From: an uncultured Clostridia bacterium
GTDB lineage: Bacteria > Bacillota > Clostridia > TANB77 > CAG-465
Length of the DNA: 64,000 bases
Direction of reading: 5' to 3'
NCBI GenBank assembly: GCA_944388545.1
Contig: CALXJE010000022.1
Coordinates: 3,146 to 67,145 of the forward strand
Below the pieces are notes generated by a model. It was not told the origin of the DNA. It did no database searches and worked only from the letters and a program-made list of their open reading frames with translations. A program made the position numbers and the translations under genes. Each line of letters opens with the position of its first letter. Positions within the stretch are counted from its first letter, which is position 1. Of this stretch, positions 13,889 through 58,168 are shown in pieces.

Positions 13889-13901
13889 TAGGAGTAAAAA
13901 T

Positions 13902-14411
13902 ATGAACCAAGAAACAATATTTTCACTAGAAATATTAAGTATATTAACTATTATTATAATGGTTAGTTTAATTATATGTATAGTTATGTTAATAATACAT
14001 ATAATAAAGTTAAAGAAATATGAGAATAAGTATAATGAAATTTGGTCTAAATTTGATAATGATAATTTAGAAAAGGATATTGAAAATTTACTTAATAATA
14101 TGGAAGAAACGAAAAGATATTGTGAAGAAACAAAAATAGAATGTTCATCTATAGAAGGAAAAATGCAAAAATGTGTTCAAAAAGTGGGATTAGTAAAATA
14201 TGACGCTTATGAGACAGGTAACAATGGACTTAGTTTTGCACTAGCTTTGTTAAATTATAAAGATGATGGAGTTCTAATAAATAGTGTTTATACTAGAGAA
14301 GGATCTAATATTTATGCAAGAGAGATAGTAAATGGGGAAGCTAAGAACAATTTATCAATAGAAGAAAATGAAGCTTTAAAAAAAGCGTTAAACAGTAAGA
14401 GCTTTATGTAG
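13902..14411 (+). CDS. DUF4446-type membrane-anchored protein commonly found after parB in Clostridia
   Basis: 169 aa with an N-terminal TM helix. Conserved position downstream of spo0J. The family call is from memory. Confidence 0.6.
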   Translation: MNQETIFSLEILSILTIIIMVSLIICIVMLIIHIIKLKKYENKYNEIWSKFDNDNLEKDIENLLNNMEETKRYCEETKIECSSIEGKMQKCVQKVGLVKYDAYETGNNGLSFALALLNYKDDGVLINSVYTREGSNIYAREIVNGEAKNNLSIEENEALKKALNSKSFM

Positions 14412-14446
14412 TATTTGCAATACCTAGAAAAAACTCTTTCTAGGTA

Positions 14447-14474
14447 TTGACAAAATTTATATTTATGCTATAAT
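14447..14474 (+). promoter_or_regulatory. Promoter of tRNA-Ser(UGA)
   Basis: TTGACA, 16-nt spacer, TGcTATAAT extended -10. Confidence 0.6.
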
Positions 14475-14491
14475 ATTTAATACTTACATAT

Positions 14492-14580
14492 GGAAGAGTG
14501 TCCGAGTGGTTTAAGGAGCCAGTCTTGAAAACTGGTGATGTCGAAAGGCACCGTGGGTTCGAATCCTACCTCTTCCGCCA
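14492..14580 (+). tRNA. tRNA-Ser (anticodon UGA)
   Basis: Acceptor GGAAGAG/CTCTTCC, long variable arm, anticodon loop CTTGAAA, T-loop GGTTCGAATCC, encoded CCA. Confidence 0.95.
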
Positions 14581-14723
14581 GTATAATAAGTATCCTTTAC
14601 GGGTACTATTTTTTTATCGTATATAAAGAATTTAAAAATAAGTACTTCTTTTTGGTTTTATAACTATAAATGTTGACTTATAATTAAATTAGTATATAAT
14701 ATATAGCATAGTTAATATATTAT

Positions 14724-14816
14724 GGAGAGTTACCCAAGAGGCCGAAGGGGACTGTTTGCTAAACAGTTAGTGTCCGCATAAGGGCAGCGAGGGTTCGAAT
14801 CCCTCACTCTCCGCCA
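14724..14816 (+). tRNA. tRNA-Ser (anticodon GCU)
   Basis: Acceptor GGAGAGT/ACTCTCC, anticodon loop TTGCTAA, long variable arm, T-loop GGTTCGAATCC, encoded CCA. Confidence 0.95.
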
Positions 14817-14822
14817 AATTTT

Positions 14823-14860
14823 AAAGACACTAGATAAGGTATATTTAGTGTCTTTTATTT
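14823..14860 (+). terminator. Intrinsic terminator after tRNA-Ser(GCU)
   Basis: AAAGACACTA ... TAGTGTCTTT hairpin plus a T run. Confidence 0.8.
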
Positions 14861-15062
14861 CATATAAAATTATAATTAGATTTTCGTATTTAAATTAGAT
14901 TACATATAATTAGTAAAAAAATATTTAAAATTAATAAAGTATTATTTAAAGCTGTTTGTAATAGTAAGATACTACTATATATTTAAATATATATCTTTTT
15001 AATAACTTGTATTTGAAAAATTGATATGATATATTATCGTTGTTATTTTAGGGGAGAAGAAA

Positions 15063-15542
15063 ATGATAGAGCATCCATTCGAGCCAATATATTCAAAAGA
15101 GAGCAATATTTTAATATTAGGAAGCTTTCCATCTGTAATATCAAGAAAACAAAATTTTTATTATGCTCACCCACAAAATAGATTTTGGAAGTTAATTGCT
15201 GCCATATATAATTCAGAAAAACCAACTACAATTGAGGAAAAAAAGAAACTTATTTTAGACAATAAACTTGCTATTTGGGATAGTATAAAAAGTTGTGATA
15301 TTATAGGATCGGCAGACAGTACAATACAGAATATAGAAGTAAATGATATTAATAGTCTAATCAATAAAACTAGCATTAATAAAGTTATATTTAATGGAAG
15401 AAAATCATTTGAAACATATATTAAATATAATAAAAAATTAGAAAATATAAAGTATATTGAACTTCCTTCTACTAGTCCTGCAAATGCTCAATATTCATTT
15501 GATAGACTATATAATATTTGGTCAAAAGAGTTATTAAAATAA
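15063..15542 (+). CDS. Uracil-DNA glycosylase superfamily protein (hypoxanthine/deoxyinosine DNA glycosylase-like)
   Basis: 159 aa with ILILGSFPS and YYAHPQNRFW motifs typical of this UDG family. Confidence 0.7.
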   Translation: MIEHPFEPIYSKESNILILGSFPSVISRKQNFYYAHPQNRFWKLIAAIYNSEKPTTIEEKKKLILDNKLAIWDSIKSCDIIGSADSTIQNIEVNDINSLINKTSINKVIFNGRKSFETYIKYNKKLENIKYIELPSTSPANAQYSFDRLYNIWSKELLK

Positions 15543-16312: not shown

Positions 16313-16546
16313 ATATAGATAGTAGATATAATAGATTTTATATCTATTTTTTTAAAATACGCATGTTTACATAAATATTGACAAGGCTTATTAAATATAG
16401 TATAATTATATCGGAAAAATATATTTATAAAAAATAAATTTATTTTTTAAGATAATAATTTAAGGAGGTGTTGTGCAAAAAAATAATAATGGGCCAACCA
16501 TTTTAATATAGATGTAATAATTTAAAATTATAAAGGAGGAACTAAA

Positions 16547-20406: not shown

Positions 20407-21501
20407 ATGAATATATATGTTTATGGAATAATTTTAATTATATCTTTTTTTGTTTGTTATTTTACAGTACCTTTTGCAATTAAATTTGCAGTAAAAAAAG
20501 GTATAATTGATAATCCTAAAAAGGATGATAGAAGAGTACATAAAAAACCAATACCACGTGCAGGTGGTATTGCTATAATTTTTTCTATGGCAGTCACTTT
20601 ATTAGTTTATTATATTTTATCATTATTTTATGACAATTTAAAAGTAGATATGAGATTTGTAGGATTTTGTATAGGTGGAACTATTATAGCGATAATGGGA
20701 TTTTTAGATGATTTAAAAGATTTAAGACCAATAGAAAAGTTTTTATTTCAATTGGTCGCAGCGTCGGTAATATATTTATTTGGAATTAGCATAGTAGGTA
20801 TTAAGATACCATTCATATATAGCAATATAATTGATTTTGGAATATTTGCATATCCGATAACTGTTGTGTGGATACTAGCAATAACTAATGCAGTTAATTT
20901 AATTGATGGTTTAGATGGACTTGCTGCAGGAATATCAAGTATATCTGCAATATCACTACTTGTTATATTTTTACTTACAGGTGCACCACTTGAAGTTATA
21001 ATAATAACGATTGCTCTTGTAGGAGCTACTCTTGGATTTTTACCATATAATTTTAATCCAGCGAAAACATTTATGGGCGATGTAGGTTCTAACTTTTTAG
21101 GATTTACACTTGCAGTTATATCAATTATGGGTATGGCTAAAGGTTATACTATTTTAGCTATAGCTACACCTATAATAGTTTTAGGAATACCAGTATTTGA
21201 TATGGTATTTGCTATAATAAGAAGACTTTTGAGAGGGCAGAAAATAACCGCACCTGATAAAGAACATATACATCATAGACTATTAAATTTAGGCTTGTCA
21301 CAAAAACAAGCAGTACTTACGTTATATATAATAACATCTGTACTTGGAATTATAGCTGTAGCGCTTGTTGCTAATATGAAATGGCAATTTATTTTACTTA
21401 TAATAATATTAGCAAACATAGCAGGAATTTATGCTATTACCAAGTATAAAATTAAAAATAAAAAAGATGAGCCAAAATTTGAATTAAAAGAAAAAAATTA
21501 A
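20407..21501 (+). CDS. tagO: Undecaprenyl-phosphate GlcNAc-1-phosphate transferase (MraY/WecA/TagO family)
   Basis: 364 aa, about 10 TM helices, NAVNLIDGLDGLA motif. The tagO symbol is tentative. Confidence 0.8.
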   Translation: MNIYVYGIILIISFFVCYFTVPFAIKFAVKKGIIDNPKKDDRRVHKKPIPRAGGIAIIFSMAVTLLVYYILSLFYDNLKVDMRFVGFCIGGTIIAIMGFLDDLKDLRPIEKFLFQLVAASVIYLFGISIVGIKIPFIYSNIIDFGIFAYPITVVWILAITNAVNLIDGLDGLAAGISSISAISLLVIFLLTGAPLEVIIITIALVGATLGFLPYNFNPAKTFMGDVGSNFLGFTLAVISIMGMAKGYTILAIATPIIVLGIPVFDMVFAIIRRLLRGQKITAPDKEHIHHRLLNLGLSQKQAVLTLYIITSVLGIIAVALVANMKWQFILLIIILANIAGIYAITKYKIKNKKDEPKFELKEKN

Positions 21502-22034: not shown

Positions 22035-23267
22035 ATGAATAAAGATATTTTAGTAATAAATGATAATAAATTTAAAAGTATATTTATAACAGTTAATTAT
22101 ATTAGAAAATTAGATAGAAAAGAAGCAGGAAAAAACGCATTACTTGCATCAATTCTAAGAAAGGGAACAAAAAATCTAAAAACAGAAAAAGAATTAGAAC
22201 TAGAACTTGCCAAATTATATTCTTCAAGTATAGCAGTTAATGTAGAGAAAATTGGAGGAATATATAAAGTAGAGTTTGGAGTTGAATTTATAAATAAGAA
22301 GTATATTAACGAAGATGTGTCAGACAAAGTTATTAATATATTAAATGATATAATATATAATCCATATTTAGAAGAAGGAGTTTTTTCAAGAGAATATTTT
22401 ATTAGAGAAAAAGAGGCTTTGCTAGAGAAGATAAATCAAGAACAAAACGATAAAAGAAAATGGGCATTAAGAAGATTAGAAGAAGAAATGTATGATGAAA
22501 GTGATTACAAAGTAGCATCATTGGGTGATGCTGACGAAATAGCTAAAGAAACAGAAAAAACTATTTATGAATATTATAAAGAGTTTTTAAAAACTTCTGA
22601 AATAAAAATTGTAATAACAGGAAATCTTGATGGCTATGATGATCTAGAAGACAAACTAAGAATTAAGTTTTTAAATGGAGTAAGTAATAAAATAAATGCA
22701 TTAGAGATAAAAAATAGAGAAAAATTAAAAGAAATTAAAGATTATGAAACTTTAAATCAAAGTATACTGTGCTTTGGATTAAACGTTAAAAATACAGATG
22801 CAAATATGATACCTGCTGTAACAGTATATAATAGTATACTTGGAGGAACGCCAGCATCAAAATTATTCCAAAATGTTCGTGAAAAAGAAAGTTTAGCATA
22901 TTTTGCTAAATCTCAGTACAATAAATATATAAATGCTATATACATATATTCTGGTATTGATTTAAGTAAAAAAGAAAAAGCAACTACTGTTATAAAAAAC
23001 CAATTAGAAGATTTAAAAAATGGTAATATAACAGAAGAAGAACTAGATACAGCTAAGAAAAATATAGTATTAACATATAAAGCTTTATCTGATAGTAAAA
23101 TAATGTATAATAGGGCAGTACTTGCCAATAAATACTATAATGAGGATTTTGATATTAATAAATTTATTGAAGAAATAGAAAAGGTTACAATTGACGATAT
23201 TGTAAATATAGCAAAAGACATAGAAGTAAATACTATATATCTTTTAGGAGGTAAGATAGATGAGTAG
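22035..23267 (+). CDS. M16 family peptidase-like protein (non-catalytic partner, no HxxEH)
   Basis: 410 aa, paired and overlapping with the following M16 gene. Pitrilysin-like length, no zinc motif seen. Confidence 0.7.
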   Translation: MNKDILVINDNKFKSIFITVNYIRKLDRKEAGKNALLASILRKGTKNLKTEKELELELAKLYSSSIAVNVEKIGGIYKVEFGVEFINKKYINEDVSDKVINILNDIIYNPYLEEGVFSREYFIREKEALLEKINQEQNDKRKWALRRLEEEMYDESDYKVASLGDADEIAKETEKTIYEYYKEFLKTSEIKIVITGNLDGYDDLEDKLRIKFLNGVSNKINALEIKNREKLKEIKDYETLNQSILCFGLNVKNTDANMIPAVTVYNSILGGTPASKLFQNVREKESLAYFAKSQYNKYINAIYIYSGIDLSKKEKATTVIKNQLEDLKNGNITEEELDTAKKNIVLTYKALSDSKIMYNRAVLANKYYNEDFDINKFIEEIEKVTIDDIVNIAKDIEVNTIYLLGGKIDE

Positions 23268-24558
23268 ATTTGAAGTAGAGATTAACAATATAACTCAAGA
23301 TAAGGTATATAAAACTGTATTAAAAAGTGGTCTTAAATTATTTATATGTCCAAGAAAAGATTATACTAAAAAAATGGGAATGTTTGGTACAGTATTTGGA
23401 TCTATAGATAATGAATTAGTTGATATAGAAACAAAAGAAAGATATAAAGTTCCAGATGGAATTGCACACTTTTTAGAGCATAAATTGTTTGAGCAAGAAA
23501 ACGCAAACGCACTTGATGTATTTTCAAAAATGGGAGTAGATTCAAATGCATATACATCGTTTGATCAAACTGTATATTATTTTGAAACGGCCGATAGATA
23601 TGAAGAATGCTTAGATAAGTTAATAGATTTTGTTTCATCACCTTATTTTACTGATCAAAATGTTGAAAAAGAAAAAGGGATAATTGCTCAAGAGATAAAA
23701 ATGTATGAAGATGAGCCTAATTCGGTCGTTTATTATAATCTATTAAGAAGTATGTATAAAAACCATCCTATAAATATTGATATTGCAGGGACAGTTGAGA
23801 CAATTAATAAAATAGATAAAGACATATTATATAAATGCTATAACTCATATTATAATTTAAAAAATATGTTTCTAATTATCATTGGTGATGTTTCAGTTGA
23901 GGATATTGTTGATAAAACAGAAAAATTAATTCAAAAGTATTACACTAATAGAAAAGCCGATATAGTTGAAAGGAATATTATAGAAGAACCAGAAGAAATA
24001 AAACAAAACGAAATAACATCAAATCTTCCTATATCTATGCCGATAGAATGTATTGGATTTAAAATGAAACCTATTAGTGGAAAAGATAGTGTTAAAACAA
24101 TGATTATATCTGATATAATAAATGATGTTTGTTTTTCAACATCTTCAGAGTTTTATGAAGAATTGTATAATGATGGAATTTTAATTTCTGAACCAGAATT
24201 TTCTTTTGAAAGTGGTAGAAATTTTTCACATATAGTAATATCATCATTTGTTTTAGATACTTCAAAATTTGAAAGTAAAATTAAATCGTATATTAAAAAA
24301 CTTAAAGAACAAGGAATAAATGAAGAAAGATTTAAAATAATGCTTAAGAAAAGACAAGGAGAGGTAATATATAATTCTGAAAAATTAACATGGATATATA
24401 GAAGTATTATTGAATCTGTAATTCAAAATATTAACGTATATGATGAAGTGGAATTAGTGAATGATATAACAAAGGAAGATGTTGATAATTTTATAAAGAA
24501 TAATCTTGATTTTGATAAAATGTGTATATCTAGAGTATTACCAAAAGGTTCTCAATAA
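23260..24558 (+). CDS. M16 family zinc peptidase
   Basis: 432 aa with the inverted zinc motif HFLEHKLFE (HxxEH). Confidence 0.8.
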   Translation: MSRFEVEINNITQDKVYKTVLKSGLKLFICPRKDYTKKMGMFGTVFGSIDNELVDIETKERYKVPDGIAHFLEHKLFEQENANALDVFSKMGVDSNAYTSFDQTVYYFETADRYEECLDKLIDFVSSPYFTDQNVEKEKGIIAQEIKMYEDEPNSVVYYNLLRSMYKNHPINIDIAGTVETINKIDKDILYKCYNSYYNLKNMFLIIIGDVSVEDIVDKTEKLIQKYYTNRKADIVERNIIEEPEEIKQNEITSNLPISMPIECIGFKMKPISGKDSVKTMIISDIINDVCFSTSSEFYEELYNDGILISEPEFSFESGRNFSHIVISSFVLDTSKFESKIKSYIKKLKEQGINEERFKIMLKKRQGEVIYNSEKLTWIYRSIIESVIQNINVYDEVELVNDITKEDVDNFIKNNLDFDKMCISRVLPKGSQ

Positions 24559-24575: not shown

Positions 24576-24618
24576 CGAATATTGTAGAAAATTGCGGTCG
24601 AAAATTACATAATATTAA

Positions 24619-24647
24619 TTGACATATTTGTAAATAAATGGTATAAA
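24619..24647 (+). promoter_or_regulatory. Promoter of the Spo0E-like gene
   Basis: TTGACA, 17-nt spacer, TGgTATAAA extended -10. Confidence 0.55.
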
Positions 24648-24670: not shown

Positions 24671-24823
24671 ATGGTAACTTATGAAATAAACGTATTAAGA
24701 GAAAAACTGGAAAAACAAATACTAAGTAATGAACCTTATGAAGAAATTTATAGGACAAGTACTGAAATAGATAAGTTGCTAACAAAATATTATAAAAATA
24801 ACGAATTATCCGAAAGGATTTAA
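24671..24823 (+). CDS. Spo0E-like sporulation regulatory (aspartyl-phosphatase family) small protein
   Basis: 50-aa ORF MVTYEINVLREKLEKQILSNEPYEEIYRTSTEIDKLLTKYYKNNELSERI with an AAGGAG RBS. The helical pattern with S..ID.L...Y is typical of the Spo0E family. Below the ORF-track size cutoff. Confidence 0.55.
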   Translation: MVTYEINVLREKLEKQILSNEPYEEIYRTSTEIDKLLTKYYKNNELSERI

Positions 24824-25120
24824 ATTTACATTTAATAAAGATAGTCCTAGACAAATAATAAGCAAGATATCAGTAGAACTATCTGTTACTAAAAAGAAAA
24901 TTATCGCTAAGATAATAATGCTATCAACACCAATAGATAGTCCACCAATATCTAGCCTATTATTTTCTGGCTTTAAACTTAAAAAATCTATAGCTCGGTT
25001 TAATAAATTATTTTTTTTAGAGAAATCTTTTTTATCATTATTATATTCGTATGAATTATTAGTAGGAGCTTCAATTTCTATACTATTTTCAAGATTATTA
25101 AAGTTATTATACAAATCCAT
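24806..25120 (-). CDS. Hypothetical protein with C-terminal hydrophobic segment
   Basis: Last ORF of a three-gene minus-strand unit. The probable start MDLYNNFNN at 25120 overlaps the stop of the previous gene. Confidence 0.4.
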   Translation of the reverse strand: MDLYNNFNNLENSIEIEAPTNNSYEYNNDKKDFSKKNNLLNRAIDFLSLKPENNRLDIGGLSIGVDSIIILAIIFFLVTDSSTDILLIICLGLSLLNVNLNPFG

Positions 25121-25649
25121 TAAAATCACTATCCTCATTATTAAAAGAATCAAGAACATTTAAAATTCCCAGTACAAAAATATAAGTATCAACATTTTTT
25201 TGTCTATTATTTCTTAAAAACGGTTTAAGAGATAATAATAGGTTTTTTCTAGGGTCTTCTTTATTCATGCTTGAAATGATTTTTCCAAAACGCATCATAG
25301 TGTTTAAATCTAAATTCATAAAAGGATTCGAGGCAGACTGATTTTGAGACGTATTTTGACTATTAGAATTGAGCTTATTAAACATTTCAAATAATTTAGA
25401 AGCATCAAAACTATTATTGTTTTGTGAAACTTGATTGGTATTAATGTTTTGAGTTGAGAAATTAACATTCTGATTGTTATATGTACTATTTGATGCGGTG
25501 TTAGTATTAACTTGATTAGAACTGTTTAGTTTCTCTTGAATGTTTGATATTATATCAAGTAAAGGATTTGAATTGTCATTATCTGCCTTTATCTCCTTTG
25601 GTAATTCATTATTATTCATGCTATTTATATTTACACTTTCATTTTCCAT
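25107..25649 (-). CDS. Hypothetical Asn/Gln/Ser-rich protein
   Basis: 180 aa with a long N/Q/S low-complexity centre and a conserved-looking C-terminus (LLLSLKPFLRNNRQKNVDTYIFVLGIL). Confidence 0.55.
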   Translation of the reverse strand: MENESVNINSMNNNELPKEIKADNDNSNPLLDIISNIQEKLNSSNQVNTNTASNSTYNNQNVNFSTQNINTNQVSQNNNSFDASKLFEMFNKLNSNSQNTSQNQSASNPFMNLDLNTMMRFGKIISSMNKEDPRKNLLLSLKPFLRNNRQKNVDTYIFVLGILNVLDSFNNEDSDFNGFV

Positions 25650-25651
25650 AG

Positions 25652-25804
25652 CTATTTTCCTTGATTATTATTGTTGTTTATTCCAAGCATATTTGTTAAA
25701 TTATTTAAGTCTTCCTTAGACATATTTTTTACCATATTTGATACTTGTTCAAGCTTATCTTTATCAACTCCTGAAAGTAATTCTAGTAATTTTGAATTTA
25801 ACAT
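25652..25804 (-). CDS. Hypothetical 50-aa protein
   Basis: MLNSKLLELLSGVDKDKLEQVSNMVKNMSKEDLNNLTNMLGINNNNNQGK with an AAGGAG RBS 13 nt upstream. Its stop lies 2 nt before the next ORF's start. Confidence 0.45.
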   Translation of the reverse strand: MLNSKLLELLSGVDKDKLEQVSNMVKNMSKEDLNNLTNMLGINNNNNQGK

Positions 25805-26006
25805 GTTATTCACTATTAATCAACTCCTTTAATAATATCTATATGATATTTATATAACAATTATATGCTATAAGATATTTTTATGTTCCTATTAATAAAG
25901 AAGAGGTGATAATATTTTATTAAAAACAAGTAAAGCTAAAGACGTAACTAAATTTTATAATATAATAGACGTAAAAAATGGGGATATTATAACTAATAAT
26001 GGAATT

Positions 26007-26450
26007 ATGAATATTTATAATATTAGTCCTTGTAATACTTTAGGTGATGATGAAGAATTAAAATGCAATATATTTAATTCGTATTTAGCTACAATTAAAT
26101 TAATTAATTTTAATTATCAAGTCTTAATAAATACAGATAAAATAAATTTTGAAAAGAATTTTGACATATTAAATAAAAATACGTATTTATCAACTAATAA
26201 TGTTCAAAGAAATATGATAGAAGAATATAAAGAATATTTGATTAAATTATCAAAAGAAAGACAAATATATGAAAAGACCTTTTATATAATAGTAGAAAAG
26301 TTAAATCTAAATGAGAAAAAGCAATTTGAAGAAGCTTTTAATTCAATGAAAAATTTAGGAGTAAGTATAAGTAAAATTGAAAATTCAGACGAAGTATTTA
26401 AAATATTATACAATACTATTAATAAATTTGACGAAGAGGTTAGTAAATGA
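26007..26450 (+). CDS. VirB4-like (Tn916 ORF16/TcpF/PrgJ-type) ATPase, N-terminal fragment
   Basis: The frame is open from 25899. The N-terminal pattern ..DVKNGDIITNNG.MNIYNISP.N resembles Gram-positive VirB4 N-termini and begins upstream of the first ATG. Confidence 0.6.
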   Translation: MNIYNISPCNTLGDDEELKCNIFNSYLATIKLINFNYQVLINTDKINFEKNFDILNKNTYLSTNNVQRNMIEEYKEYLIKLSKERQIYEKTFYIIVEKLNLNEKKQFEEAFNSMKNLGVSISKIENSDEVFKILYNTINKFDEEVSK

Positions 26451-27469
26451 ATATAGAAAGTATTTATCCTACTAATATTATAATAAAGCATGATTATATT
26501 AAGATAAATAATAAATATATTTCTACTATTATAATTGAAGAATTACCAAAAGAGATTTCAATGCTTGAGATGAATAATATAATTCCTAAAGATATTCCTA
26601 ATAATATGACAATATACATTAATAAATTAGATTTAAATACACAGATAAAAAATCTTTCTAAAATAATACTGGAGACAGATTCAGAAATAAAGTCTATAAA
26701 TAAACATCAGCAAGATATTGATATATTAAAGAGAATAAATAACGAAGCTACTATATTAAGAAAAAAGATACAAATTGAAAATGAGGAATTATATAAAGTA
26801 AATATATATATTTGTGTAAATGATATATATTTAGATAATTTAAAACTAAAAGTTAATAAAATGATTTCAACATTATATACAAAGGGGATTGTTGCTAAAA
26901 TAGCTAATTTTAGGCATGATCAAATATATTTAAATACACTGCCTATTAATAATTATAATGATGCGATAATAAAGCAAACAGGACTTAATGTTGTTACTTC
27001 ACAACTATCATATATGATCCCATATATAAATAACAATATATATAACTTAAAAGGAGTACTTTATGGTTTTATAAACAATTCATTTTGTCTATACGATATA
27101 TTCTCAGAAAATAATATGAATTATAATATGTGTATATTAGGGAGTAGTGGAGCCGGCAAATCTTATTTTATAAAGACAATTCTTTTGAGAAATTTTTGTA
27201 TGAATATAAGACAAATTATATTTGATATTGAGGAAGAATATTTAAATATAGCAGAATATACAAATGCTATCATATTTAAAGAAAGTAATTTTAATATGTT
27301 ATATATTCCAGAAATTTTTGTAAAATCAAATAAGGAAGATTTCTTAACTAAGAAAATAGAAATGATTTTTTCTTTGTTAAATAATATTACAAATTATAAG
27401 TTAAACGAATATAAAAATATTTTTGTTAATAACTTAAGAAAAATATATAGTGAAAAGCGGAATAACTGA
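26447..27469 (+). CDS. VirB4-like ATPase, central fragment with Walker A
   Basis: Walker A ILGSSGAGKSYF followed by IIFDIEEEY (AAA_10/VirB4 pattern). ATGA overlap with the previous ORF. Confidence 0.75.
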   Translation: MNIESIYPTNIIIKHDYIKINNKYISTIIIEELPKEISMLEMNNIIPKDIPNNMTIYINKLDLNTQIKNLSKIILETDSEIKSINKHQQDIDILKRINNEATILRKKIQIENEELYKVNIYICVNDIYLDNLKLKVNKMISTLYTKGIVAKIANFRHDQIYLNTLPINNYNDAIIKQTGLNVVTSQLSYMIPYINNNIYNLKGVLYGFINNSFCLYDIFSENNMNYNMCILGSSGAGKSYFIKTILLRNFCMNIRQIIFDIEEEYLNIAEYTNAIIFKESNFNMLYIPEIFVKSNKEDFLTKKIEMIFSLLNNITNYKLNEYKNIFVNNLRKIYSEKRNN

Positions 27470-28166
27470 TAATATTAATTCAATATATGATTATTATACT
27501 AGCAAAAGATTAAATATAAATAAGGAATATAAAAAATATAGTGAATTTCCAAATATGAAAGATTTATTAGATAGTTTATTAAAAGAAAAAAGTATACCAT
27601 CTAGTATAACTAAAGAATTAAGAAAACAAACTATATTTAATAAAGTAAATATAGAGAATTTAAAAAAATTAGATGATAAATTTGATAGTATTATACTTTT
27701 TAATTTTAAAAATGCTAATGCAGATAGTTTTAAAATTTATTTAAACTATTTAGAGCAGTATTACGGAGAAAATATGTTAATATATGTAGACGAGATGTGG
27801 AAGTTCATAAACTTATCTTGTGAAAATAATATTGATAGTGAAATATCAAACTTATTTAAAACTATAAGAAAGAAAAGAGCAGGTATAGTAATTGCAACAC
27901 AGGATATACATGATATTTTAAAATATAAAGAAGGAATTTTTGGAAAAAGTATATTAAATAATTCATTTACTAAATTATTTTTTAAGATGCAATATATAGA
28001 TTTAAATACTCTTCAAGATGTAGGATTATGTTCAGAAGAAACGTTTAAAAATATAAGAAAATTGGGAATAGGAAGTGCATATATGAGTATAGGTGATAAT
28101 AAATTTAACATAGATATAAAAACTAGTGATTTTGAAAAAACAATTATAGGAGGTGAATCATTATGA
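27450..28166 (+). CDS. VirB4-like ATPase, C-terminal fragment with Walker B
   Basis: Walker B LIYVDEMWKF and RKKRAGIVIATQDIHD, with a terminal G.AYMSIGDNKFNIDIK..DFE pattern. Overlaps the previous ORF by 20 nt in the +1 frame. Confidence 0.75.
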   Translation: MKSGITDNINSIYDYYTSKRLNINKEYKKYSEFPNMKDLLDSLLKEKSIPSSITKELRKQTIFNKVNIENLKKLDDKFDSIILFNFKNANADSFKIYLNYLEQYYGENMLIYVDEMWKFINLSCENNIDSEISNLFKTIRKKRAGIVIATQDIHDILKYKEGIFGKSILNNSFTKLFFKMQYIDLNTLQDVGLCSEETFKNIRKLGIGSAYMSIGDNKFNIDIKTSDFEKTIIGGESL

Positions 28167-29392
28167 AAAAAATTTTAGTAGCAATAGATAATATGAAAAT
28201 ATATAAAGAGATAAATAAAATAGAAGAATATGATATATATAAACAGGATATTGTATATAAAGAAGGTGTTCTAGAATACATAGCTAAAAACAAGGTGGAT
28301 ATTATAATAACAAGAGATGATTTACAAGGTGATATGATAAAAGAAATATATATAAAACAAATAAAACTATTGGTTCCAGACGTTAAATTAATTTTATTTG
28401 TGAAGGAGATGAATAATAGCTATCTAGAATTCTTATATAATAATAATGTATTCAATATAATTCAAAATCATGATACATTTACAAAAGAGGATATAATGAA
28501 CTTAATAAAAGAAAAAAATATGGAAAATATAATATATGATAGTAAAAAATCAGAAAATAGAGTTATTAACAAAACAATAAATATAACTACTAAAAAAAGA
28601 ATAGCTGTGTTTGGAACAAATGGAGCAGGTAAATCATATATATCAAGCGTACTATCTAACATAATAAGTAATAAGTTAAACATGAAAACTCTTTTAATTG
28701 ATTTGGATGTTCAAAGCAGTGCAATAGATATATATAATAATTTAAATTGTAGTAATAATCTACTAATGGATATTGTTAAAGATGTGGATAATCAAACAAT
28801 AAATAACGATACTTTCCAAAATAATGTTTATAAAAAAGATAAGGTAGATTATATAACTAATAATACAAGTATATTTGAATATCAAAATAATTTATGTATA
28901 AAACATTATGATAAAATATTTGAGCTTGCAAGTCAAAAATATGATGTTATTATTTCTGACATAGCATCTAATATATTTTTAGATATTACATATCATAATA
29001 TTAAAAATGCAGATATTATTATGTTTGTTATTTCTCCTAATTATATTAGTATTAGACAAGCTATAAAATATTTAGATTTAATTATAAATGTTTGGAATAT
29101 TGATAAATCAAAGATATATTTAGTAGTTAACAAAATAACAGAAAACTCTTTATCTAATATGCAAATAGAGTCATTAATACCTGGATATAAAATAATTATG
29201 CAAGTTCAATATGATAATAATTTAGAAAACGTAATAAATGGAATAAGTAGTATAGATACAGATATAGTAAAAGAAGATAAAGAAATATATAGATTATTTG
29301 GAATAAAAAAAGACTGTCAATTAGAGAAAAATCAAGATATAAAGAAAAATAAATTTTTATATAATTTATTTAGAAAAGAGGAAGTAACATGA
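28163..29392 (+). CDS. TadZ/CpaE-like protein: receiver-like N-domain fused to a MinD/ParA-fold ATPase
   Basis: 409 aa. The N-terminal alternating beta/alpha pattern is KILVAID..DIIITRDD..KLILFV. It is followed by IAVFGTNGAGKS, LLIDLD and DVIISD. Confidence 0.65.
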   Translation: MKKILVAIDNMKIYKEINKIEEYDIYKQDIVYKEGVLEYIAKNKVDIIITRDDLQGDMIKEIYIKQIKLLVPDVKLILFVKEMNNSYLEFLYNNNVFNIIQNHDTFTKEDIMNLIKEKNMENIIYDSKKSENRVINKTINITTKKRIAVFGTNGAGKSYISSVLSNIISNKLNMKTLLIDLDVQSSAIDIYNNLNCSNNLLMDIVKDVDNQTINNDTFQNNVYKKDKVDYITNNTSIFEYQNNLCIKHYDKIFELASQKYDVIISDIASNIFLDITYHNIKNADIIMFVISPNYISIRQAIKYLDLIINVWNIDKSKIYLVVNKITENSLSNMQIESLIPGYKIIMQVQYDNNLENVINGISSIDTDIVKEDKEIYRLFGIKKDCQLEKNQDIKKNKFLYNLFRKEEVT

Positions 29393-30594
29393 TTATAGAT
29401 CCATATAATATTAGCATAAATAGTAACGATAACACTCAACTAGATGATAAAGATAAATTAATAGAAGAAAGCATAATGTTTCTTGTTAACAAGTATAATA
29501 ATTTATTAGAAAACAAAAAGTACGATGAAATAAAGAATATATTATTAAAAAAATTTATTTCAAATAATATCAAAATAAATAATCCGGAAATAAATAATAT
29601 AATAAAAGAGATATTAAATAAAATATTTGGGTATGGAATTCTTCAAGAATATATAGATGATGAAGTTACTACAGATATAAGGGCAGTATCATATAATAAT
29701 ATATATGTTAAGCAATTAGGGAAATGGATAAAAAGCGAGGTTAGATTTAAGAGTAAGAATGAATTCAATGAGTTTATTAGATATTCAGTTTTAAAAAATA
29801 GTGCTAGTATTAATTATGAACAACCAATTATTATAGTAAGTGATAGAATAAATCATTTAAGGATAGAAGCAGGGATAGATCCAGTTAATGTTAAAGAATC
29901 AAATATAGTAATACGTATACATAAAGATCATAATGCTAAAAGTTTAGAAATTCTTTTTGCAAAATATGATATGATAAATAAAGACACATATATATTTTTA
30001 GGAGAATCTATAAAAAAACTTAAAAATATTTTGATTGTAGGAAAAGGTGGTAGTGGAAAAACAACACTGCTAAGATCAATAATTGATAAACTTCCAAAAG
30101 AGATAGCAATTTCTACAAATGAAGAAACAGCTGAATTATATTTAGAAGATAGAAACATAATACAAAGAGAAATACTTATTAGAAAAACAGAAGAAAAGTC
30201 AATAGATTTAGAAAAGCTTGCAAGACATTCACTTGTCATGAGTAATGATGTTATAGTTATTGGAGAATTAAAAGGAAAAGAAGCGAGTACTTTTTTTGAT
30301 GCTATTTCTACTGGTCATGTAGGATATACTACCATTCATGCAGATTCTATTGAAAATAGTATTGATAGATTGATTGTATTAATAAAAAAAGATATAAAAG
30401 CACAGGGATATACAGATGCATTCTTAAGAAGATTTATTACTAGTTCATTAGATTATATAATATTTATGAAAGATTATAAAATAGAGGAAATAGCTTCACT
30501 AAAGTATAATGCAGATAAAAATCAAATAAATAAAGATACTATATATATGAATGAAAATATACTAAATAAGGAAGATAAAAATGCTATTACTTAA
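29389..30594 (+). CDS. CpaF/TadA/VirB11-family secretion ATPase
   Basis: 401 aa with Walker A IVGKGGSGKTTLL, Walker B/Glu VIVIGELKGKEA and His box TGHVGYTTIHADS. Confidence 0.85.
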   Translation: MIIDPYNISINSNDNTQLDDKDKLIEESIMFLVNKYNNLLENKKYDEIKNILLKKFISNNIKINNPEINNIIKEILNKIFGYGILQEYIDDEVTTDIRAVSYNNIYVKQLGKWIKSEVRFKSKNEFNEFIRYSVLKNSASINYEQPIIIVSDRINHLRIEAGIDPVNVKESNIVIRIHKDHNAKSLEILFAKYDMINKDTYIFLGESIKKLKNILIVGKGGSGKTTLLRSIIDKLPKEIAISTNEETAELYLEDRNIIQREILIRKTEEKSIDLEKLARHSLVMSNDVIVIGELKGKEASTFFDAISTGHVGYTTIHADSIENSIDRLIVLIKKDIKAQGYTDAFLRRFITSSLDYIIFMKDYKIEEIASLKYNADKNQINKDTIYMNENILNKEDKNAIT

Positions 30595-31471
30595 AATATT
30601 AATTATTATAAATATATTCGTGTTTGTTTTTAGTTTATGTATATATATAGTATCAAATATAAAATTTATTAAACTAAAGATGAAAGAAGATATAACGAAA
30701 TCTAAAATGGCAAATATAATAGATATAAAACTTAAATATTTAGAAACATACATATCTTCTTCTAAAGCAAAAAAATATTTAAATTCAATAATAGTTTTAG
30801 TTGTTTCATTATTACTTTCAATAATTACATATTTTTTTTCAATAATATTTATTAAAATATTTAGTACTTCCTTAATTTTATCTTTAATTTCATTTTCATT
30901 ACCTTATTTGATAATTACCATATTAGTTAATTCAAATACTCATAAAATAAAAACAATATTACCATCTTATATAGTAAATCTAAAAAACAATGTTGAGATA
31001 TCTAATAATATTATAAATGCAATAAATATAACAAAAGTAGAAGAACCGTTGAAATATAGCATTGATAGATTTAACCTTAAGGTAAGTAGAGGAATAAATG
31101 TACATCAATGTTTTGATGAATTAAAGAAGCGTATAAATATCGAAACATTTAGTAATTTAATAGATGCATTTAAAGTATGTTATGAAACAGGAGGAGATTA
31201 CATTAATGTTTTGAATAAGTATATTGATATTATATCTAAGGAAAACTTAGAAAAAGCAAAATTAAAAGAAAATAGTAGTACTACTATAATTACACTTGTA
31301 TTAATGATACTAATTAATATATTCTTATTATTTTCAGTGGTTTTAGGAAATGAAACATATAGTCAAACAATATTGGAAACAACAGCAGGTCATTTTATAC
31401 TTAATTTTGAAATAATAAGTTATTTAGTTGTACTATATTTTGTATATAAAGTATATAAAATGGAGGGATAA
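30581..31471 (+). CDS. TadB/TadC/GspF-like inner-membrane platform protein (single T2SSF-type domain)
   Basis: 296 aa with N-terminal TM helices, a cytoplasmic helical domain (LPSYIVNLKNNVEISNNI...GINVHQCFDEL...GGDYINVL) and C-terminal TM helices. Confidence 0.65.
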   Translation: MLLLKILIIINIFVFVFSLCIYIVSNIKFIKLKMKEDITKSKMANIIDIKLKYLETYISSSKAKKYLNSIIVLVVSLLLSIITYFFSIIFIKIFSTSLILSLISFSLPYLIITILVNSNTHKIKTILPSYIVNLKNNVEISNNIINAINITKVEEPLKYSIDRFNLKVSRGINVHQCFDELKKRINIETFSNLIDAFKVCYETGGDYINVLNKYIDIISKENLEKAKLKENSSTTIITLVLMILINIFLLFSVVLGNETYSQTILETTAGHFILNFEIISYLVVLYFVYKVYKMEG

Positions 31472-31473
31472 AG

Positions 31474-32214
31474 ATGCAAATGATTTTAGAAAATGATGAA
31501 ATATTTAATTCCATTAAGGGTTTAACAAAAGAATTAAATATAGAAAAAGATATAGATAGTATGAAAAGTCAATTTGGAAAAATAATTACAAACACCGTAG
31601 ATAAAGTAGCTACATATACTATAAAGGCAATGCCTTTGCCAGATTCGTTCAAAGATATATTATATGATGTAAAAGAAGCATTTAAGACAAAAGATTTTAA
31701 AGAAATAATAAAAACGGTAATTAATAGTTCGGTAAGAGAAGGATTAGAATTTCTAGGGCTTAATAACAATTCTATAAAAAACATAATGGGAATAAAAGAT
31801 ATAGCTTTAAAAGGTGGTTTAATTCAAGGAATTAAAGCTGGAATAGATATAATGTCAAAAAAACATTTAAATAATAATATAGTAGAAGATTATGTTTATG
31901 ATTTCTTTGATAAAATGAAAAGTGCTCCTTTTACTAAAGATTTCCTTGAAAAGGTTAATAAGAACACTAGAAAGTTACTAGACGCAAAGGAAGAATTCTT
32001 AGATAAATGTAATGATTTTAAAGAGGCGTATAAAGAGTTTGATATTGATAAAATAAATAATTTAGCAAATGAAGTAAAAAATAAGTTAAAAACAGTAAAA
32101 CAAGATAAAGAATGTATAAGAGAAAATAAACTAATACAAAATATAACTGAATTGGTAAACACCAGGCATGAAAAGTTAACAGATGCACAGTTGCAACTTT
32201 GTAATATAATGTAG
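31474..32214 (+). CDS. Hypothetical soluble alpha-helical protein
   Basis: 246 aa with no TM segment and a K/E-rich helical C-terminal half. Starts 2 nt after the platform gene. Confidence 0.6.
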   Translation: MQMILENDEIFNSIKGLTKELNIEKDIDSMKSQFGKIITNTVDKVATYTIKAMPLPDSFKDILYDVKEAFKTKDFKEIIKTVINSSVREGLEFLGLNNNSIKNIMGIKDIALKGGLIQGIKAGIDIMSKKHLNNNIVEDYVYDFFDKMKSAPFTKDFLEKVNKNTRKLLDAKEEFLDKCNDFKEAYKEFDIDKINNLANEVKNKLKTVKQDKECIRENKLIQNITELVNTRHEKLTDAQLQLCNIM

Positions 32215-32247
32215 TATAATGTAGATAATTTAATTAGGAGTATTGTT

Positions 32248-33453
32248 ATGGAGAGTAGGAAAAAGAGAAGACAAGTAAAAGACTATGATAATAATATTAG
32301 AAAAGCAAAAAGTAAAGGAAAAATTACCTGTTTAATACTTTTTATACTTATGATAGCTATCTATTATCAAGTGTATGGGTTATTTAAATATACAACCGGA
32401 AAGACAGTTACAGAAGGTCAAATAGCATTGTATAAATGGATGTCTAGTATAGTTCATTCTTCAAAAGTAGCAGAAAAAAGTTCTTTAAACATAGGTATAA
32501 TAGGAAATATAACAATAAATGATAAAATAACCAGAGCATATACTCAAGATGGAATAGCGCAACTAGGAAGTATAATTAAGAATGTTTCTTTCTCAGACTA
32601 TGATTATACTATAGCAAGTTTAAATACTCAAATTATAGAAGATAATGATATAAGTGTAGAATATAGTGCTCCTAAAAATTTTTTAAAAGAACTAAATGTT
32701 ATTGGGTTAAATTTATTAGTAACATCAACAAGAAATCTTAGTGAATTAAATAAATCTGATATAAAAGAAACACTAGATAGCATAAAAGAGAACAATATGG
32801 ATTATGTAGGAACAAGACTAGATAAAAAGGATAATACCTATTATATTTTAGAAAAAAACAATATAAAGGTTGCAATATTATCATATGTTGGAGAGGATTA
32901 TTGTGACGATGATAACATTTTTAGTGTATACAGTGAAGAACAACTAAAAAAAGATTTAAAAGATGTTAAAAGTAAAAATGTAGATTGTATAATTTTATTT
33001 ATTGATACACTTAGAAGTAACAAATCACAGGTTAATGTTGACAAAAAAGAATTATTACAAAACATATTAGATAAAGGTGTAGATGTTATAATATCAAATG
33101 ATAGTATAATTCAAGACAGTTATGAAAATATTACAGATATTAGTGGCAATGAAAAACATGGATATATTAAATATTCTTTAGGTGATTTTATAGGAGATCA
33201 AGAGCAAGAAGATAGTGATATATCAAAATGTTTAAAAGTATCTATAAATAAAGAGGCAAATGGTGAGAAAGCAGGAGTAGAAATAGATATCGTAGAAGAT
33301 AAAACGTTTGTTGCATTATCAAATGCTAGCAAAGATAAATATAAAGTAGTAGATTTAGATAAGGAACTTAGTAGGTATAAAAATAATAGTACATCTAGTA
33401 TAACGCAGGTAGAATATAACTATTTAACTAATATTAAAGAGAAATTAGAATAA
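32248..33453 (+). CDS. Membrane-anchored CapA/PgsA-like (metallophosphatase-fold) protein, possibly degenerate
   Basis: 401 aa with an N-terminal TM. CapA-like segments include MDYVGTRLDKKDNTYYILEKNNIKVAILSYVG and DCIILFID...KGVDVIISND. AGGAG RBS. Confidence 0.55.
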   Translation: MESRKKRRQVKDYDNNIRKAKSKGKITCLILFILMIAIYYQVYGLFKYTTGKTVTEGQIALYKWMSSIVHSSKVAEKSSLNIGIIGNITINDKITRAYTQDGIAQLGSIIKNVSFSDYDYTIASLNTQIIEDNDISVEYSAPKNFLKELNVIGLNLLVTSTRNLSELNKSDIKETLDSIKENNMDYVGTRLDKKDNTYYILEKNNIKVAILSYVGEDYCDDDNIFSVYSEEQLKKDLKDVKSKNVDCIILFIDTLRSNKSQVNVDKKELLQNILDKGVDVIISNDSIIQDSYENITDISGNEKHGYIKYSLGDFIGDQEQEDSDISKCLKVSINKEANGEKAGVEIDIVEDKTFVALSNASKDKYKVVDLDKELSRYKNNSTSSITQVEYNYLTNIKEKLE

Positions 33454-33460
33454 ATATGAC

Positions 33461-33490
33461 AAAAAGTCAGCAAAAAGCTGACTTTTTGTT
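33461..33490 (+). terminator. Intrinsic terminator ending the 25.9-33.5 kb operon
   Basis: AAAAAGTCAGC / GCTGACTTTTT perfect 11-bp hairpin followed by a T run. Confidence 0.85.
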
Positions 33491-34538: not shown

Positions 34539-35283
34539 ATGAAATTAAAGATAACAATAAAAAGAATATTTTTTATAGGAGTATTAATAGCAATTTCAGT
34601 AATTTCAGCCGAGATAACAAAAAATAATAGCTTATCAAGTAAAGCGGTGCAAGCTAACTCAACACCTATAACTAATAAGAAAGTGGTATTAGATGCTGGG
34701 CATCGGACTTCCTGACGAGGGTGCAGTAGGATTTACGGGTACAACAGAGCAAGCTATAAATTTAGAAATTGTATTAAAACTTCAAAAACTTATAGAGCAA
34801 AGTGGTGCAAAAGTTATTCTTACAAGAAGTGACGAAAATGGTATATACTCAGCAGATAGCAATAGTATCAGGAATAAAAAAATCAGTGATATAAAGAACA
34901 GAGAAAATATAGTTGATACTAGTGGTGCAGATATATTTATATCAATACATTTAAATAAGTATCAAGATAGTAAATATAGTGGATGGCAAACATTCTATCA
35001 ATCAAATAATGATAATAGTAAACTCTTAGCAAATAGTATACAGAGTGAAATAAATAAAAATATTAATGAAGATAATAACAGGGTACCTATGGCTATAAAA
35101 GGTGTATATATTATGGATCACATTGATATACCTGGTACAGTAGTAGAATGTGGCTTTATATCTAATCCGGAGGAAGAAAAATTATTAGGAGAAGAGAGCT
35201 ATCAAAACAAGCTTGCGTGGGGAATATATACAGGTCTGCAACAATATTTTTTAGAAACAGATAAAAACAAAATGGAGGAATAG
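34539..35283 (+). pseudogene. cwlD: Germination-specific N-acetylmuramoyl-L-alanine amidase CwlD, interrupted by a 1-nt frameshift
   Basis: The N-terminal signal/TM part MKLKITIKRIFFIGVLIA...KKVVLDAGH ends at TGA 34713-34715. The rest (GLPDEGAVGFTGTTEQAINLE...ISIHLN...) continues in the +1 frame (track ORF 34693-35283). Confidence 0.75.
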
Positions 35284-37218: not shown

Positions 37219-37441
37219 AACAATATTAATCTATAAATATACTAAAAAAATAACAATTTTAATAATGGTAAAAATATCCATATTTTATTTGAATGTCGAT
37301 AAATGCCGAAAAACATGGTACTGTGTCGAAATAAAACTAATAGTTTCATAAAAACAACGTATCGTCATTTTATATTTGACACAAAATATAGTAGTATATA
37401 TATAAACACTTATAGGGTGATAGCTTCTTTGGAGGTAAAAT

Positions 37442-37765
37442 ATGGATTATATGAAATTAGGAGAGAAAATAAAAAAAGAGAGATTGCGTAATAGACTTAC
37501 TCAAGAAATGCTAGCTGAAATGGCGGAAATAACTAGTTCATATGTAGGTCAAATAGAACGAGGAGAAAGAAAAGTTACTTTGTCAAAACTAGTTAGAATA
37601 GCAAATGTATTGAATATTAGTGTAGATTATTTATTATCAGACACTATGGAAATGATAGAAGATAATTTAGAAATAGAGATAAAAAATGCGATGTGTAACA
37701 TGGAAGAAAAAGATAAATTAATGATAATAGATATTATAAAAATAATAAATGATTATAAGGATTAG
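37442..37765 (+). CDS. XRE family helix-turn-helix transcriptional regulator
   Basis: 107 aa. LGEKIKKERLRNRLTQEMLAEMAEITSSYVGQIERGERKVTLSKLVRIANVLNISVDYLL is a canonical HTH_3 domain. GGAGG RBS. Confidence 0.85.
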   Translation: MDYMKLGEKIKKERLRNRLTQEMLAEMAEITSSYVGQIERGERKVTLSKLVRIANVLNISVDYLLSDTMEMIEDNLEIEIKNAMCNMEEKDKLMIIDIIKIINDYKD

Positions 37766-57895: not shown

Positions 57896-58168
57896 TTAAT
57901 AACCTCCTTAACTATTTAAAATATAATATATTTTACCATTAAATAGAGTGGATTACAATATATTTGTTACAATATACTGTAATATAAACTTAATAAATAA
58001 GAATATATATAATACATATATTATATAAATGTAATATAGAGTATTTATGCCTTAAAACAGGACAATACTATTGTAAAACATATTTATAAAATGTCGAACT
58101 GATTTGACAAAGAAAAAACAGTATAGTATAATAGTAGCATCACGATATAATCGTAAGGAGGAATATTT

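Follow-up and report, generated by a model that had tools for sequence, protein, structure and literature searches.

Among ATPases, VirB4 is the hallmark of conjugation and type IV secretion. The locus described here raises the question of what such an ATPase does in a chromosomal operon together with components of a Tad-type pilus. The operon (25899-33490) lies in a stretch of 64,000 nt from an uncultured Clostridia bacterium (contig CALXJE010000022.1, positions 3,146 to 67,145, forward strand), which as a whole is referred to as the window and belongs to a contig of a metagenome-assembled genome (MAG; ENA ERZ24773294) with 7.6x coverage. It comprises seven plus-strand genes, designated A, V (the open reading frames (ORFs) B and C together), D, E, F, G and H. 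The operon is chromosomal, non-mobile and under purifying selection and does not represent a mobile element; very probably it is a functional, vertically inherited hybrid, which is neither conjugative nor a complete Tad pilus. We favour the reading that it encodes an ATPase machine of hybrid origin, domesticated in spore-forming gut Clostridia and probably switched on by Spo0A, and we assign a probability of about 0.5 to this reading. An earlier note on this DNA had proposed an undescribed hybrid machine or, alternatively, a domesticated or decaying relic. Its view of a chromosomal, domesticated and undescribed operon agrees with the fixed position of the genes in related genomes and with full-text literature searches, in which no published description of this gene combination was found. 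The features of the operon are as follows:

25902..25916, plus strand: translation start of gene A as seen in the sequence itself, with the ribosome-binding site AGAGGTGA (25902-25909) and an ATT codon (25914-25916)
25914..26450, plus strand: gene A, which encodes the N-terminal domain of VirB4 on its own, ~178 aa (NF045975 match)
26447..28166, plus strand: gene V, VirB4-type ATPase, consisting of ORF B (26447-27469, with Walker A) and ORF C (27450-28166, with Walker B) (Pfam, NF045975, 4AG5)
27450..27469, plus strand: frameshift site inside V, one extra base at ~27455-27459 in the context GAAAAGCGG
28163..29392, plus strand: gene D, predicted TadZ-like protein with a receiver-like N-terminal domain and a MinD/ParA-type ATPase domain (CbiA; AlphaFold2 (AF2) model and Foldseek)
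29389..30594, plus strand: gene E, secretion ATPase of the CpaF/TadA/VirB11 clade (T2SSE, PDB matches)
30581..31471, plus strand: gene F, single-domain platform membrane protein of the TadB/TadC type (T2SSF)
31474..32214, plus strand: gene G, family-specific soluble all-alpha protein (AF2; no family match)
32248..33453, plus strand: gene H, signal-anchored CapA-like protein (PGA_cap), a clade-specific, co-transcribed accessory
33461..33490, plus strand: intrinsic terminator closing the operon, hairpin GTCAGC-AAAAA-GCTGAC followed by TTTTTGTTGT

ATGA overlaps join A to B (B starts at 26447 and A ends at 26450), C to D (28163) and D to E (29389). E and F overlap by 14 nt (30581), and gaps of 2 nt (31472) and 33 nt separate F from G and G from H, respectively. 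No terminator-like site was detected on the plus strand within the operon, and Rfam searches of the operon and its leader revealed neither a riboswitch nor another regulatory RNA; the terminator hairpin alone matched, spuriously, a miRNA model. The earlier description of eight coupled ORFs is correct regarding the ORFs, their coordinates and overlaps, as well as the lack of an internal hairpin, the terminator at 33461-33490 and the quoted peptide motifs, all of which were found in the translations. The true gene count is seven, and the supposed 20-nt overlap at 27450 is actually a frameshift within V, which results from a 1-nt insertion near 27458. Among the operon proteins, membrane segments are confined to F and H.

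Relatives of the operon were collected in a scan with one genome per species, which yielded at least 543 candidate loci, and the best 80 were all inspected. The census of gene content is based on 83 non-redundant loci, in which contig ends make absences lower bounds. Almost all carriers among the best 80 loci are uncultured gut Clostridia from human, rabbit, sheep and other hosts. V was present in 83/83 loci, D in 73/83, G in 63/83 (beside V) and A in most of the 83; E and F were found in 13/83. In every one of the ~80 inspected genomes the operon has a fixed chromosomal position, and two contexts can be distinguished. In the context of the window (~18 loci), the yfmF/yfmH M16 peptidase genes and a spo0E-like gene are located upstream and ylbF, cwlD and tadA downstream, and this synteny is kept in relatives at 33-63% identity. 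The second context is recF-gyrB-[A-V-D-G]-gyrA-dnaC/dnaD (~50 loci, e.g. L021, L051 and L079), with flanking gyrB in 51/83 and flanking gyrA in 42/83 loci. This site lies within the origin-proximal dnaA-dnaN-recF-gyrB-gyrA cluster, an unusual home for acquired genes. The ratios of nonsynonymous to synonymous substitution rates (dN/dS), taken from close species pairs, were 0.02-0.08 for V, 0.03-0.17 for G and 0.08-0.45 for D. The operon was very probably inherited vertically in at least 80 species, and probably in several hundred.

Neither an integrase in the operon, nor a tRNA within 2.8 kb, nor a meaningful flanking repeat was found. Relaxase, coupling protein, VirB6-like protein, VirB3/PrgI and cell-wall hydrolase are missing from the operon and from the 83 related loci, and VirB8 is missing from every locus examined. 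Six-frame translations of the whole 64-kb window contained no Flp or type IV pilin motif, the related loci contained no conserved small hydrophobic ORF, and in 13/13 loci with E and F (E-F loci) the operon lacks a pilin and a prepilin peptidase. The absence of pilin, peptidase, relaxase, coupling protein, VirB6 and VirB8, and likewise of tRNA and flanking repeats, as stated in the earlier note, was thus upheld in the window and in the related loci. The search for the same neighbourhood in related genomes, proposed there as a check, retrieved the operon in fixed chromosomal contexts without the standard pilin or relaxase genes. Carriage by a plasmid or phage was rejected, as identity to plasmid VirB4s does not exceed 25% and the best of these lie within ordinary type IV secretion system (T4SS) clusters, which hold genes for PrgI, pilin-like, VirB6-size and hydrolase (DD-metalloendopeptidase) proteins, and as PHROGs gave generic terminase, ParA or P-loop similarity alone. 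In L007, a type IV pilin-like protein of 505 aa is encoded directly after G (13855-15369; N-terminus KG/ITLIALIITVIVMLILAG, weak N_methyl match); it occurs in this single lineage and was rejected as a component.

The two chromosomal contexts correspond to two clades in a rough neighbour-joining (NJ) tree of V, which was rooted with plasmid VirB4s and carries no bootstrap or other support values, and the E-F loci are basal in both clades. Furthermore, E of L038 and L055, the most distant loci, is 44-45% identical to E of the window, which is as similar as E proteins of the window's own clade, and the motif GELKG is common to them. Based on these two observations, the ancestral operon was probably A-V-D-E-F-G, and its descendants lost E and F on at least two occasions and D on a few further ones. 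The conserved core is A-V-(D)-G, and E-F is ancestral and dispensable. Consequently, the three ATPases do not form one obligate unit: VirB4, the TadZ-like protein and G persist where the CpaF-TadB pair has disappeared, and the working core under conservation is VirB4+G(+TadZ) rather than 'VirB4+Tad'.

The assignment of 26007-28166 to VirB4 was confirmed by profile searches (NF045975, AAA_10, 4AG5), in which the proteins fell where they were expected. On a single VirB4 model (NF045975, 894 positions), A, B and C are collinear and cover 98-282, 299-636 and 747-893, respectively. In the PDB, the profile of the V family matches the C-terminal domain of VirB4 from Thermoanaerobacter pseudethanolicus (4AG5, 5.2e-44), and the Pfam matches of V are DUF87, AAA_10 and P-loop_TraG. 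The Walker A motif GSSGAGKS, the DE of Walker B and further catalytic columns are invariant in the family. The N-terminal domain that precedes the ATPase domain in VirB4 is also present, with A and the first 200 residues of V being collinear with NF045975 98-636. V scores below the curated NCBIfam thresholds for VirB4 (best 91.7 bits; cut-offs of VirB4_CagE, CD1110, Mbov_0397 and TraC 325-643 bits), a deficit which results partly from the separate scoring of fragments.

In the relatives, A is nearly always a separate gene of 175-204 aa with a precomputed Pfam match to PF26593 (TraC-like), and V is a single gene of 567-590 aa in all of them; in L055 A is fused to V in one protein of 750 aa. Gene A encodes no transmembrane (TM) segment. 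VirB4 is naturally split here into a gene for the N-terminal domain (A) and a gene for the ATPase (V). Of the three VirB4 ORFs described before, the split between A and V is natural, and that between B and C is due to the frameshift: in a tblastn search of the window with P0003, a protein of a relative, the alignment switches from frame 2 to frame 3 at ~27455-27459, and the relatives read through this site (...Y-x-x-F-G-I-x-x-x-I-x-S-L-Y). The truncated V product of 340 aa is recorded from ENA, NCBI and Logan assemblies, and the frameshift may represent an assembly error.

The start of A is unusual as well. Its frame is open from 25899 and contains no ATG, GTG or TTG before 26007; the residues KDVTKFYNIIDVKNGDIITNNG, encoded upstream of this first ATG, are homologous to the N-termini of the orthologues. 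In ~37 of 58 scorable loci, ATT, ATA or ATC follows a strong Shine-Dalgarno sequence. These include the closest relatives of the window (L002, L008) and also L011-L013, L034, L067, L071, L072, L077, L082, L084 and L091, and at least 19 of them have their first ATG, GTG or TTG past the conserved N-terminal motif or have none. Because of this non-canonical start, gene callers truncate or miss A (147-aa and 123-aa calls). The pattern suggests that initiation of A is deliberately weak or regulated.

In the order of its N- and C-terminal domains and in Walker A/B, the split protein corresponds to VirB4 of Gram-positive conjugative T4SS (CD1110/Tn916-ORF16/PrgJ/TcpF type). A separate gene for the N-terminal domain probably exists in a plasmid T4SS cluster, too, where an unannotated ORF of 274 aa overlaps the start of the Pontibacillus VirB4. 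However, V is at most 25% identical to any plasmid VirB4 and remains far below the curated cut-offs. Unlike conjugative T4SS and integrative and conjugative elements, the operon lacks VirB3/PrgI, VirB6, VirB8, hydrolase, coupling protein and relaxase, occupies a fixed site and combines its VirB4 with a TadZ-like protein and with G, which is novel.

The second lineage is represented by D, E and F. At the sequence level, D matched CbiA (3.2e-7), and its profile matched MinD (4V03, 6e-19) and 3EA0 (1e-13); no match to Pfam TadZ_N was obtained. The AF2 model of D (predicted local distance difference test (pLDDT) 80) gave TadZ of Eubacterium rectale (3FKQ) as the top Foldseek match, which covers both domains (E 5e-11); 3EA0 and MinD come next. 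PMC10499894 confirms that 3FKQ is TadZ. As judged from this model, D is a TadZ-like protein with a two-domain fold, which supports the earlier assignment: MinD/ParA-like in sequence, it has its best structural match in TadZ.

For E, a match to T2SSE (1.2e-25) was obtained, and the best match in the PDB was Caulobacter CpaF (8RKD; 1.4e-20, 77 bits), followed by archaeal GspE (8e-20, 75 bits), HP0525 (VirB11; 1e-18, 71 bits) and FlaI (62 bits). In NCBIfam, models of VirB11, FlaI, TrbB and TadA-like proteins rank alike, all below the cut-off. The T2SSE match and the best PDB match are compatible with the CpaF-like protein that had been postulated for 29389-30594. Walker A, GELKG and the His box are kept in 13/13 orthologues; GELKG contains Lys where the family usually has Arg. 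F matched T2SSF with 30.0 bits (cut-off 25.2 bits), possesses at least four hydrophobic segments, and its profile weakly matches PilC (0.002). Every E-F locus contains one gene with a T2SSF domain (F), and the pair of platform proteins TadB and TadC was not found. The gene order D-E-F is the canonical order tadZ-tadA-tadB. A hybrid of two secretion lineages, as suggested by the earlier note, is thus borne out by a VirB4 of the Gram-positive type combined with TadZ-TadA/CpaF-TadB in canonical Tad order.

These genes could also belong to an ordinary Tad (type IVc) pilus, of which the pilin, the pseudopilins and the peptidase are encoded elsewhere and beside which VirB4 is merely co-located. Such a pilus would account for TadZ-, CpaF- and TadB-like proteins in canonical order, and related uncultured Clostridia (TANB77) are reported to possess pilin-bearing Tad pilus clusters (PMC11680825). 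We nevertheless regard it as improbable. The platform protein is single, and neither the 13 E-F loci nor the 64-kb window contain a pilin or peptidase. E-F was lost at least two times while strong selection acted on A-V-D-G, and loci that lack E still have D beside V. In addition, the published TANB77 cluster has a different architecture without VirB4 or G; it consists of CpaB, two ParA-like genes, a TadA of 640 aa, a fused TadBC of 693 aa and seven pilin-like genes (Kim et al. 2024, PMC11680825). A Tad-type locus is conserved in this order of uncultured gut Clostridia, but it is a separate locus, and its identification with the operon was rejected. What the operon shares with Tad/Flp pili is the TadZ fold of D, CpaF (8RKD) as the best solved relative of E and a platform protein with a single T2SSF domain; it differs in possessing one platform gene and no pilin, pseudopilin or peptidase, in the missing TadZ_N match of D and in the evolutionary dispensability of E-F, while D stays with VirB4.

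G showed no family match in Pfam, NCBIfam, PADLOC or PHROG. The AF2 model (pLDDT 88) comprises ten helices; Foldseek searches against PDB and BFVD yielded no match below E = 0.5, and the sequence profile matched designed helical bundles and nothing else in the PDB. A relationship to a soluble GspF-like domain was considered and rejected (hhalign of G against F, probability 0.2%). About 330 clusters of G exist among 1.84 billion representatives. G is a novel all-helical protein and a core partner of V.

H, the last gene of the operon, matched PGA_cap (1.4e-21) and encodes one TM segment (residues 28-46). The protein has two parts: a small signal-anchor peptide, which is conserved (K/R-rich, followed by the TM segment and QVYxLxKYTxGxxV…YKW), and, fused to it, a CapA/PGA_cap domain. 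In L003 (15729-15968) and L004 (15790-16017) H is reduced to a separate gene for a membrane stub of 75-79 aa, and H occurs also in the E/F-less human-gut species. The small N-terminal membrane protein was considered as a pilin candidate and rejected, as neither a conserved Gly cleavage motif nor Glu5 is present and as it is found in a lineage without E-F, too.

The region upstream of A provides a hint at the regulation of the operon. In the relatives, one or two TGTCGAA boxes at a distance of ~10 bp are followed by TTGACA-N17-TATAAT, typically in the layout (TGTCGAA-N3)-TGTCGAA-N9-TTGACA-N17-TATAAT (e.g. tgtcgaattTTGTCGAAcgatttttcTTGACA); TGTCGAAcgatttttcTTGACA is a form of these box-bearing promoters. 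The statistics are based on the 550-nt region upstream of A in 78 loci, with random regions of the same loci as control. Forward TGTCGAA occurred upstream of A in 44/78 loci (1.2 expected; maximum of 6 in 2000 randomisations) and the composite of TGTCGAA and TTGAC in 37 loci (0.27 expected). The composite is present in both chromosomal contexts. It was also detected upstream of the spo0E-like gene in 9 loci and, in addition, in the prevalent human species. In Bacillus and Clostridium, TGNCGAA is established as the Spo0A box. By analogy, the chances are roughly even that the boxes are Spo0A sites and that the operon is expressed at stationary phase or sporulation entry. The hosts are apparently spore-formers, as indicated by CwlD-equivalog matches (199-209 bits), Spo0E-like genes and paired Gate-domain genes, which we take to be an SpmA/B-like arrangement.

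Similar boxes were noticed at other sites. Upstream of the spo0E-like gene (24671-24823 in the window, 50 aa), TGTCGAAACTTGCGAC…TTGACA is found in L010-L013, L019, L020, L049 and L091; in the window the boxes at 24576-24647 are degenerate (TTGCGAA, GGTCGAA) and followed by TTGACA (24619-24624), N17 and TATAAA. At 58092-58135 of the window, TGTCGAA-N4-TTGACA-N17-TATAAT precedes the gene of a YabE-like, transglycosylase-type protein of 360 aa (58169-59251), and at 37295-37330 three 0A-like boxes (TGTCGAT, TGCCGAA, TGTCGAA) precede an XRE-type HTH gene (37442-37765). Judging from these motifs, both genes are candidate Spo0A targets.

A promoter of the stationary-phase type in the relatives would likewise suit a competence-like machine for DNA uptake or transfer, in which a domesticated VirB4, like Helicobacter ComB4, acts with a motor and platform similar to ComGA/ComGB. 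E and F belong to the ComGA/ComGB superfamilies (NCBIfam ComGA match 1.4e-15), the VirB4 homologue is located outside any conjugative element, and a competence-regulator gene of the YlbF/YmcA family follows directly downstream. This explanation is as improbable as the Tad pilus, because pseudopilins, ComEA/ComEC, VirB6-10 and DNA-binding proteins are absent from every locus, most members of the family possess neither E-F nor any membrane protein, and ylbF is a neighbour in one of the two chromosomal contexts only. Helicobacter pylori ComB is a domesticated T4SS for DNA uptake, which keeps homologues of VirB2-4 and VirB6-10. Like ComB, the operon places a VirB4 homologue on the chromosome for a non-conjugative task; it differs in that VirB4 alone is retained and combined with Tad parts.

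Spo0A boxes could also be expected for a module of chromosome organisation or segregation, in which a ParA/MinD ATPase and an ATPase of the FtsK/HerA superfamily act on DNA near the origin, e.g. in the course of polar septation. The ~50 loci between gyrB and gyrA, beside recF and dnaA, the ParA/MinD-like character of D and the affiliation of VirB4 with the FtsK-HerA superfamily, including weak matches to HerA and FtsK, are in line with this idea. The best structural match of D is TadZ and not Soj/ParA, however, a ParB-like or DNA-binding partner is missing, and the operon of the window's clade is located far from gyrB/gyrA. Moreover, the ancestral membrane platform of the TadB type argues for a function in the envelope, and we consider a role in segregation slightly less probable still.

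It might further be argued that the operon is a functionless, decaying remnant of an integrated conjugative element fused with remains of a Tad locus, as the earlier note had considered. V is frameshifted in the window and apparently broken also in L018, a 274-aa fragment of V exists (P0037), the nearby cwlD is frameshifted as well, and partner genes of both parent systems are absent. Genomes down to ~30% identity share the order of the genes and their position, though, the ATPase motifs are invariant, and dN/dS values are as low as 0.02. P0077, a carrier without E-F, represents a very prevalent human-gut species, which is listed in 315 blocks of the contig collection and in which the operon is intact in four metagenome assemblies. 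With at least 80 inspected genomes and strong purifying selection, decay is refuted for the family, and as a general explanation it is very unlikely; given its frameshift in V, the copy of the window may be such a relic. An anti-phage defence system based on a HerA/VirB4-like ATPase, to which weak PADLOC matches of V to mad8 (5.6e-13) and HerA models might point, can practically be dismissed, since A, F, G and H match no defence model, D and E yield marginal generic P-loop matches, nuclease or effector domains are lacking, and a fixed site in the core genome and vertical inheritance set the operon apart from defence islands.

The reading as a domesticated hybrid ATPase machine can be formulated as follows. 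Parts of two secretion lineages would form an ATPase assembly associated with the cytoplasmic membrane, and Spo0A would switch on or modulate the operon at stationary phase or sporulation entry. As TadZ does for TadA, D might place the hexameric ATPases at a membrane site, for example a pole or septum; V is likely a client of D, because D remains with V where E is absent. V and G could then perform the conserved ATP-driven step, i.e. the assembly or translocation of a substrate encoded outside the operon, and E-F, where retained, would add a Tad-like motor and a platform conduit through the membrane. These details of position and translocation are doubtful.

Several observations weigh against this reading. 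The core A-V-D-G contains no membrane protein, so that a role in translocation is conjecture. V is frameshifted in the window copy, and all carriers are uncultured and known as MAGs. The dN/dS values of E and F come from saturated pairs alone, and the tree of V is rough and unbootstrapped. Binding of Spo0A is extrapolated from Bacillus and Clostridium, and the promoters are near-consensus sigma-A promoters, which are possibly constitutive. No TGTCGAA box is present upstream of A in the window and in the closest relatives L002 and L008, where the intergenic region comprises 100 nt; in the 100-nt region of the window itself, no convincing plus-strand promoter was identified. The frameshifted V together with the missing Spo0A box means that the window copy is either mis-assembled at one base or recently inactivated or rewired.

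Among known systems, SpoIIIA-SpoIIQ and the Helicobacter ComB system come closest in concept, both being chromosomal and built from parts of secretion systems. SpoIIIA-SpoIIQ is a channel of spore-formers with ring-forming components, which depends on sigma-E and contains SpoIIIAA, an ATPase of the VirB11/GspE type, and the GspF-like SpoIIIAB. By analogy, this channel and the operon would be non-mobile machines of spore-formers derived from several secretion lineages. The homology is limited to the ATPase superfamily (spore_III_AA match 0.0058), though, the operon possesses VirB4, and control by sporulation is known for SpoIIIA-SpoIIQ and inferred alone for the operon.

In its most far-reaching form, which we put forward tentatively and hold to be rather unlikely, the domesticated machine would be an unrecognised nanomachine of the envelope or of cell biology, composed of a domesticated VirB4, a TadZ-type ATPase and G, controlled by Spo0A and acting as sporulation begins, with the pole or asymmetric septum as a possible site. 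If this is true, the motor and platform of the Tad type would be an optional extra that dates from the ancestor, the origin of the machine would parallel that of SpoIIIA-SpoIIQ, and hundreds of uncultured species of the gut, among them one that is very prevalent in humans, would have the machine in their core genome. A VirB4 fixed in the core genome without other T4SS parts would be a clear case of the domestication of a motor from a mobile element, and the operon also shows that a Tad part, TadZ, can be paired with an ATPase from outside the Tad system. The TadZ-like protein and G as partners and the likely Spo0A promoter provide handles on localisation, interaction and timing, and, the carriers being abundant gut bacteria, a machine of stationary phase or sporulation would bear on transmission and persistence of gut commensals.

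Some further observations concern the neighbouring genes. The two M16 peptidases at 22035-24558 of the window match the YfmF and YfmH families above the NCBIfam cut-offs; these families are associated with the 5-aminopentanol modification of EF-P. The gene of the spore-cortex amidase CwlD (34539-35283) carries a frameshift near 34704, at or next to the active-site motif VVLDAGHG. Frameshifts in cwlD were found in three species (the window; L004, ~17775; L091/L093/L094, ~16495-16538), the gene is intact in L002 and L003, and in the prevalent human-gut species the same split is present in three independent metagenome assemblies. This may reflect recurrent pseudogenisation, possibly with a loss of sporulation, or an error-prone or programmed site. 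In L002 (3320-4415) the gene for Glycos_transf_4 is split (75 + 304 aa), and in the window (20407-21501) it is intact (364 aa), a sign of scattered frameshifts in MAGs, either genuine or artefactual.

Upstream of the operon, three small divergent genes (53, 180 and ~104-117 aa) on the minus strand (24806-25813) are conserved in the window's clade and match no family. The protein of 180 aa is Asn-rich with the conserved C-terminal motif DPRxxLLxSLKPFLRxxRQKNxDTY, and the protein of the third gene has C-terminal TM segments. The divergent genes are preceded by the conserved minus-strand sequence GGAACAT-N14-GCATATAATT (25859-25889), which resembles a promoter of the sigma-K/sigma-E type (AC-N17-CATAnnnT).

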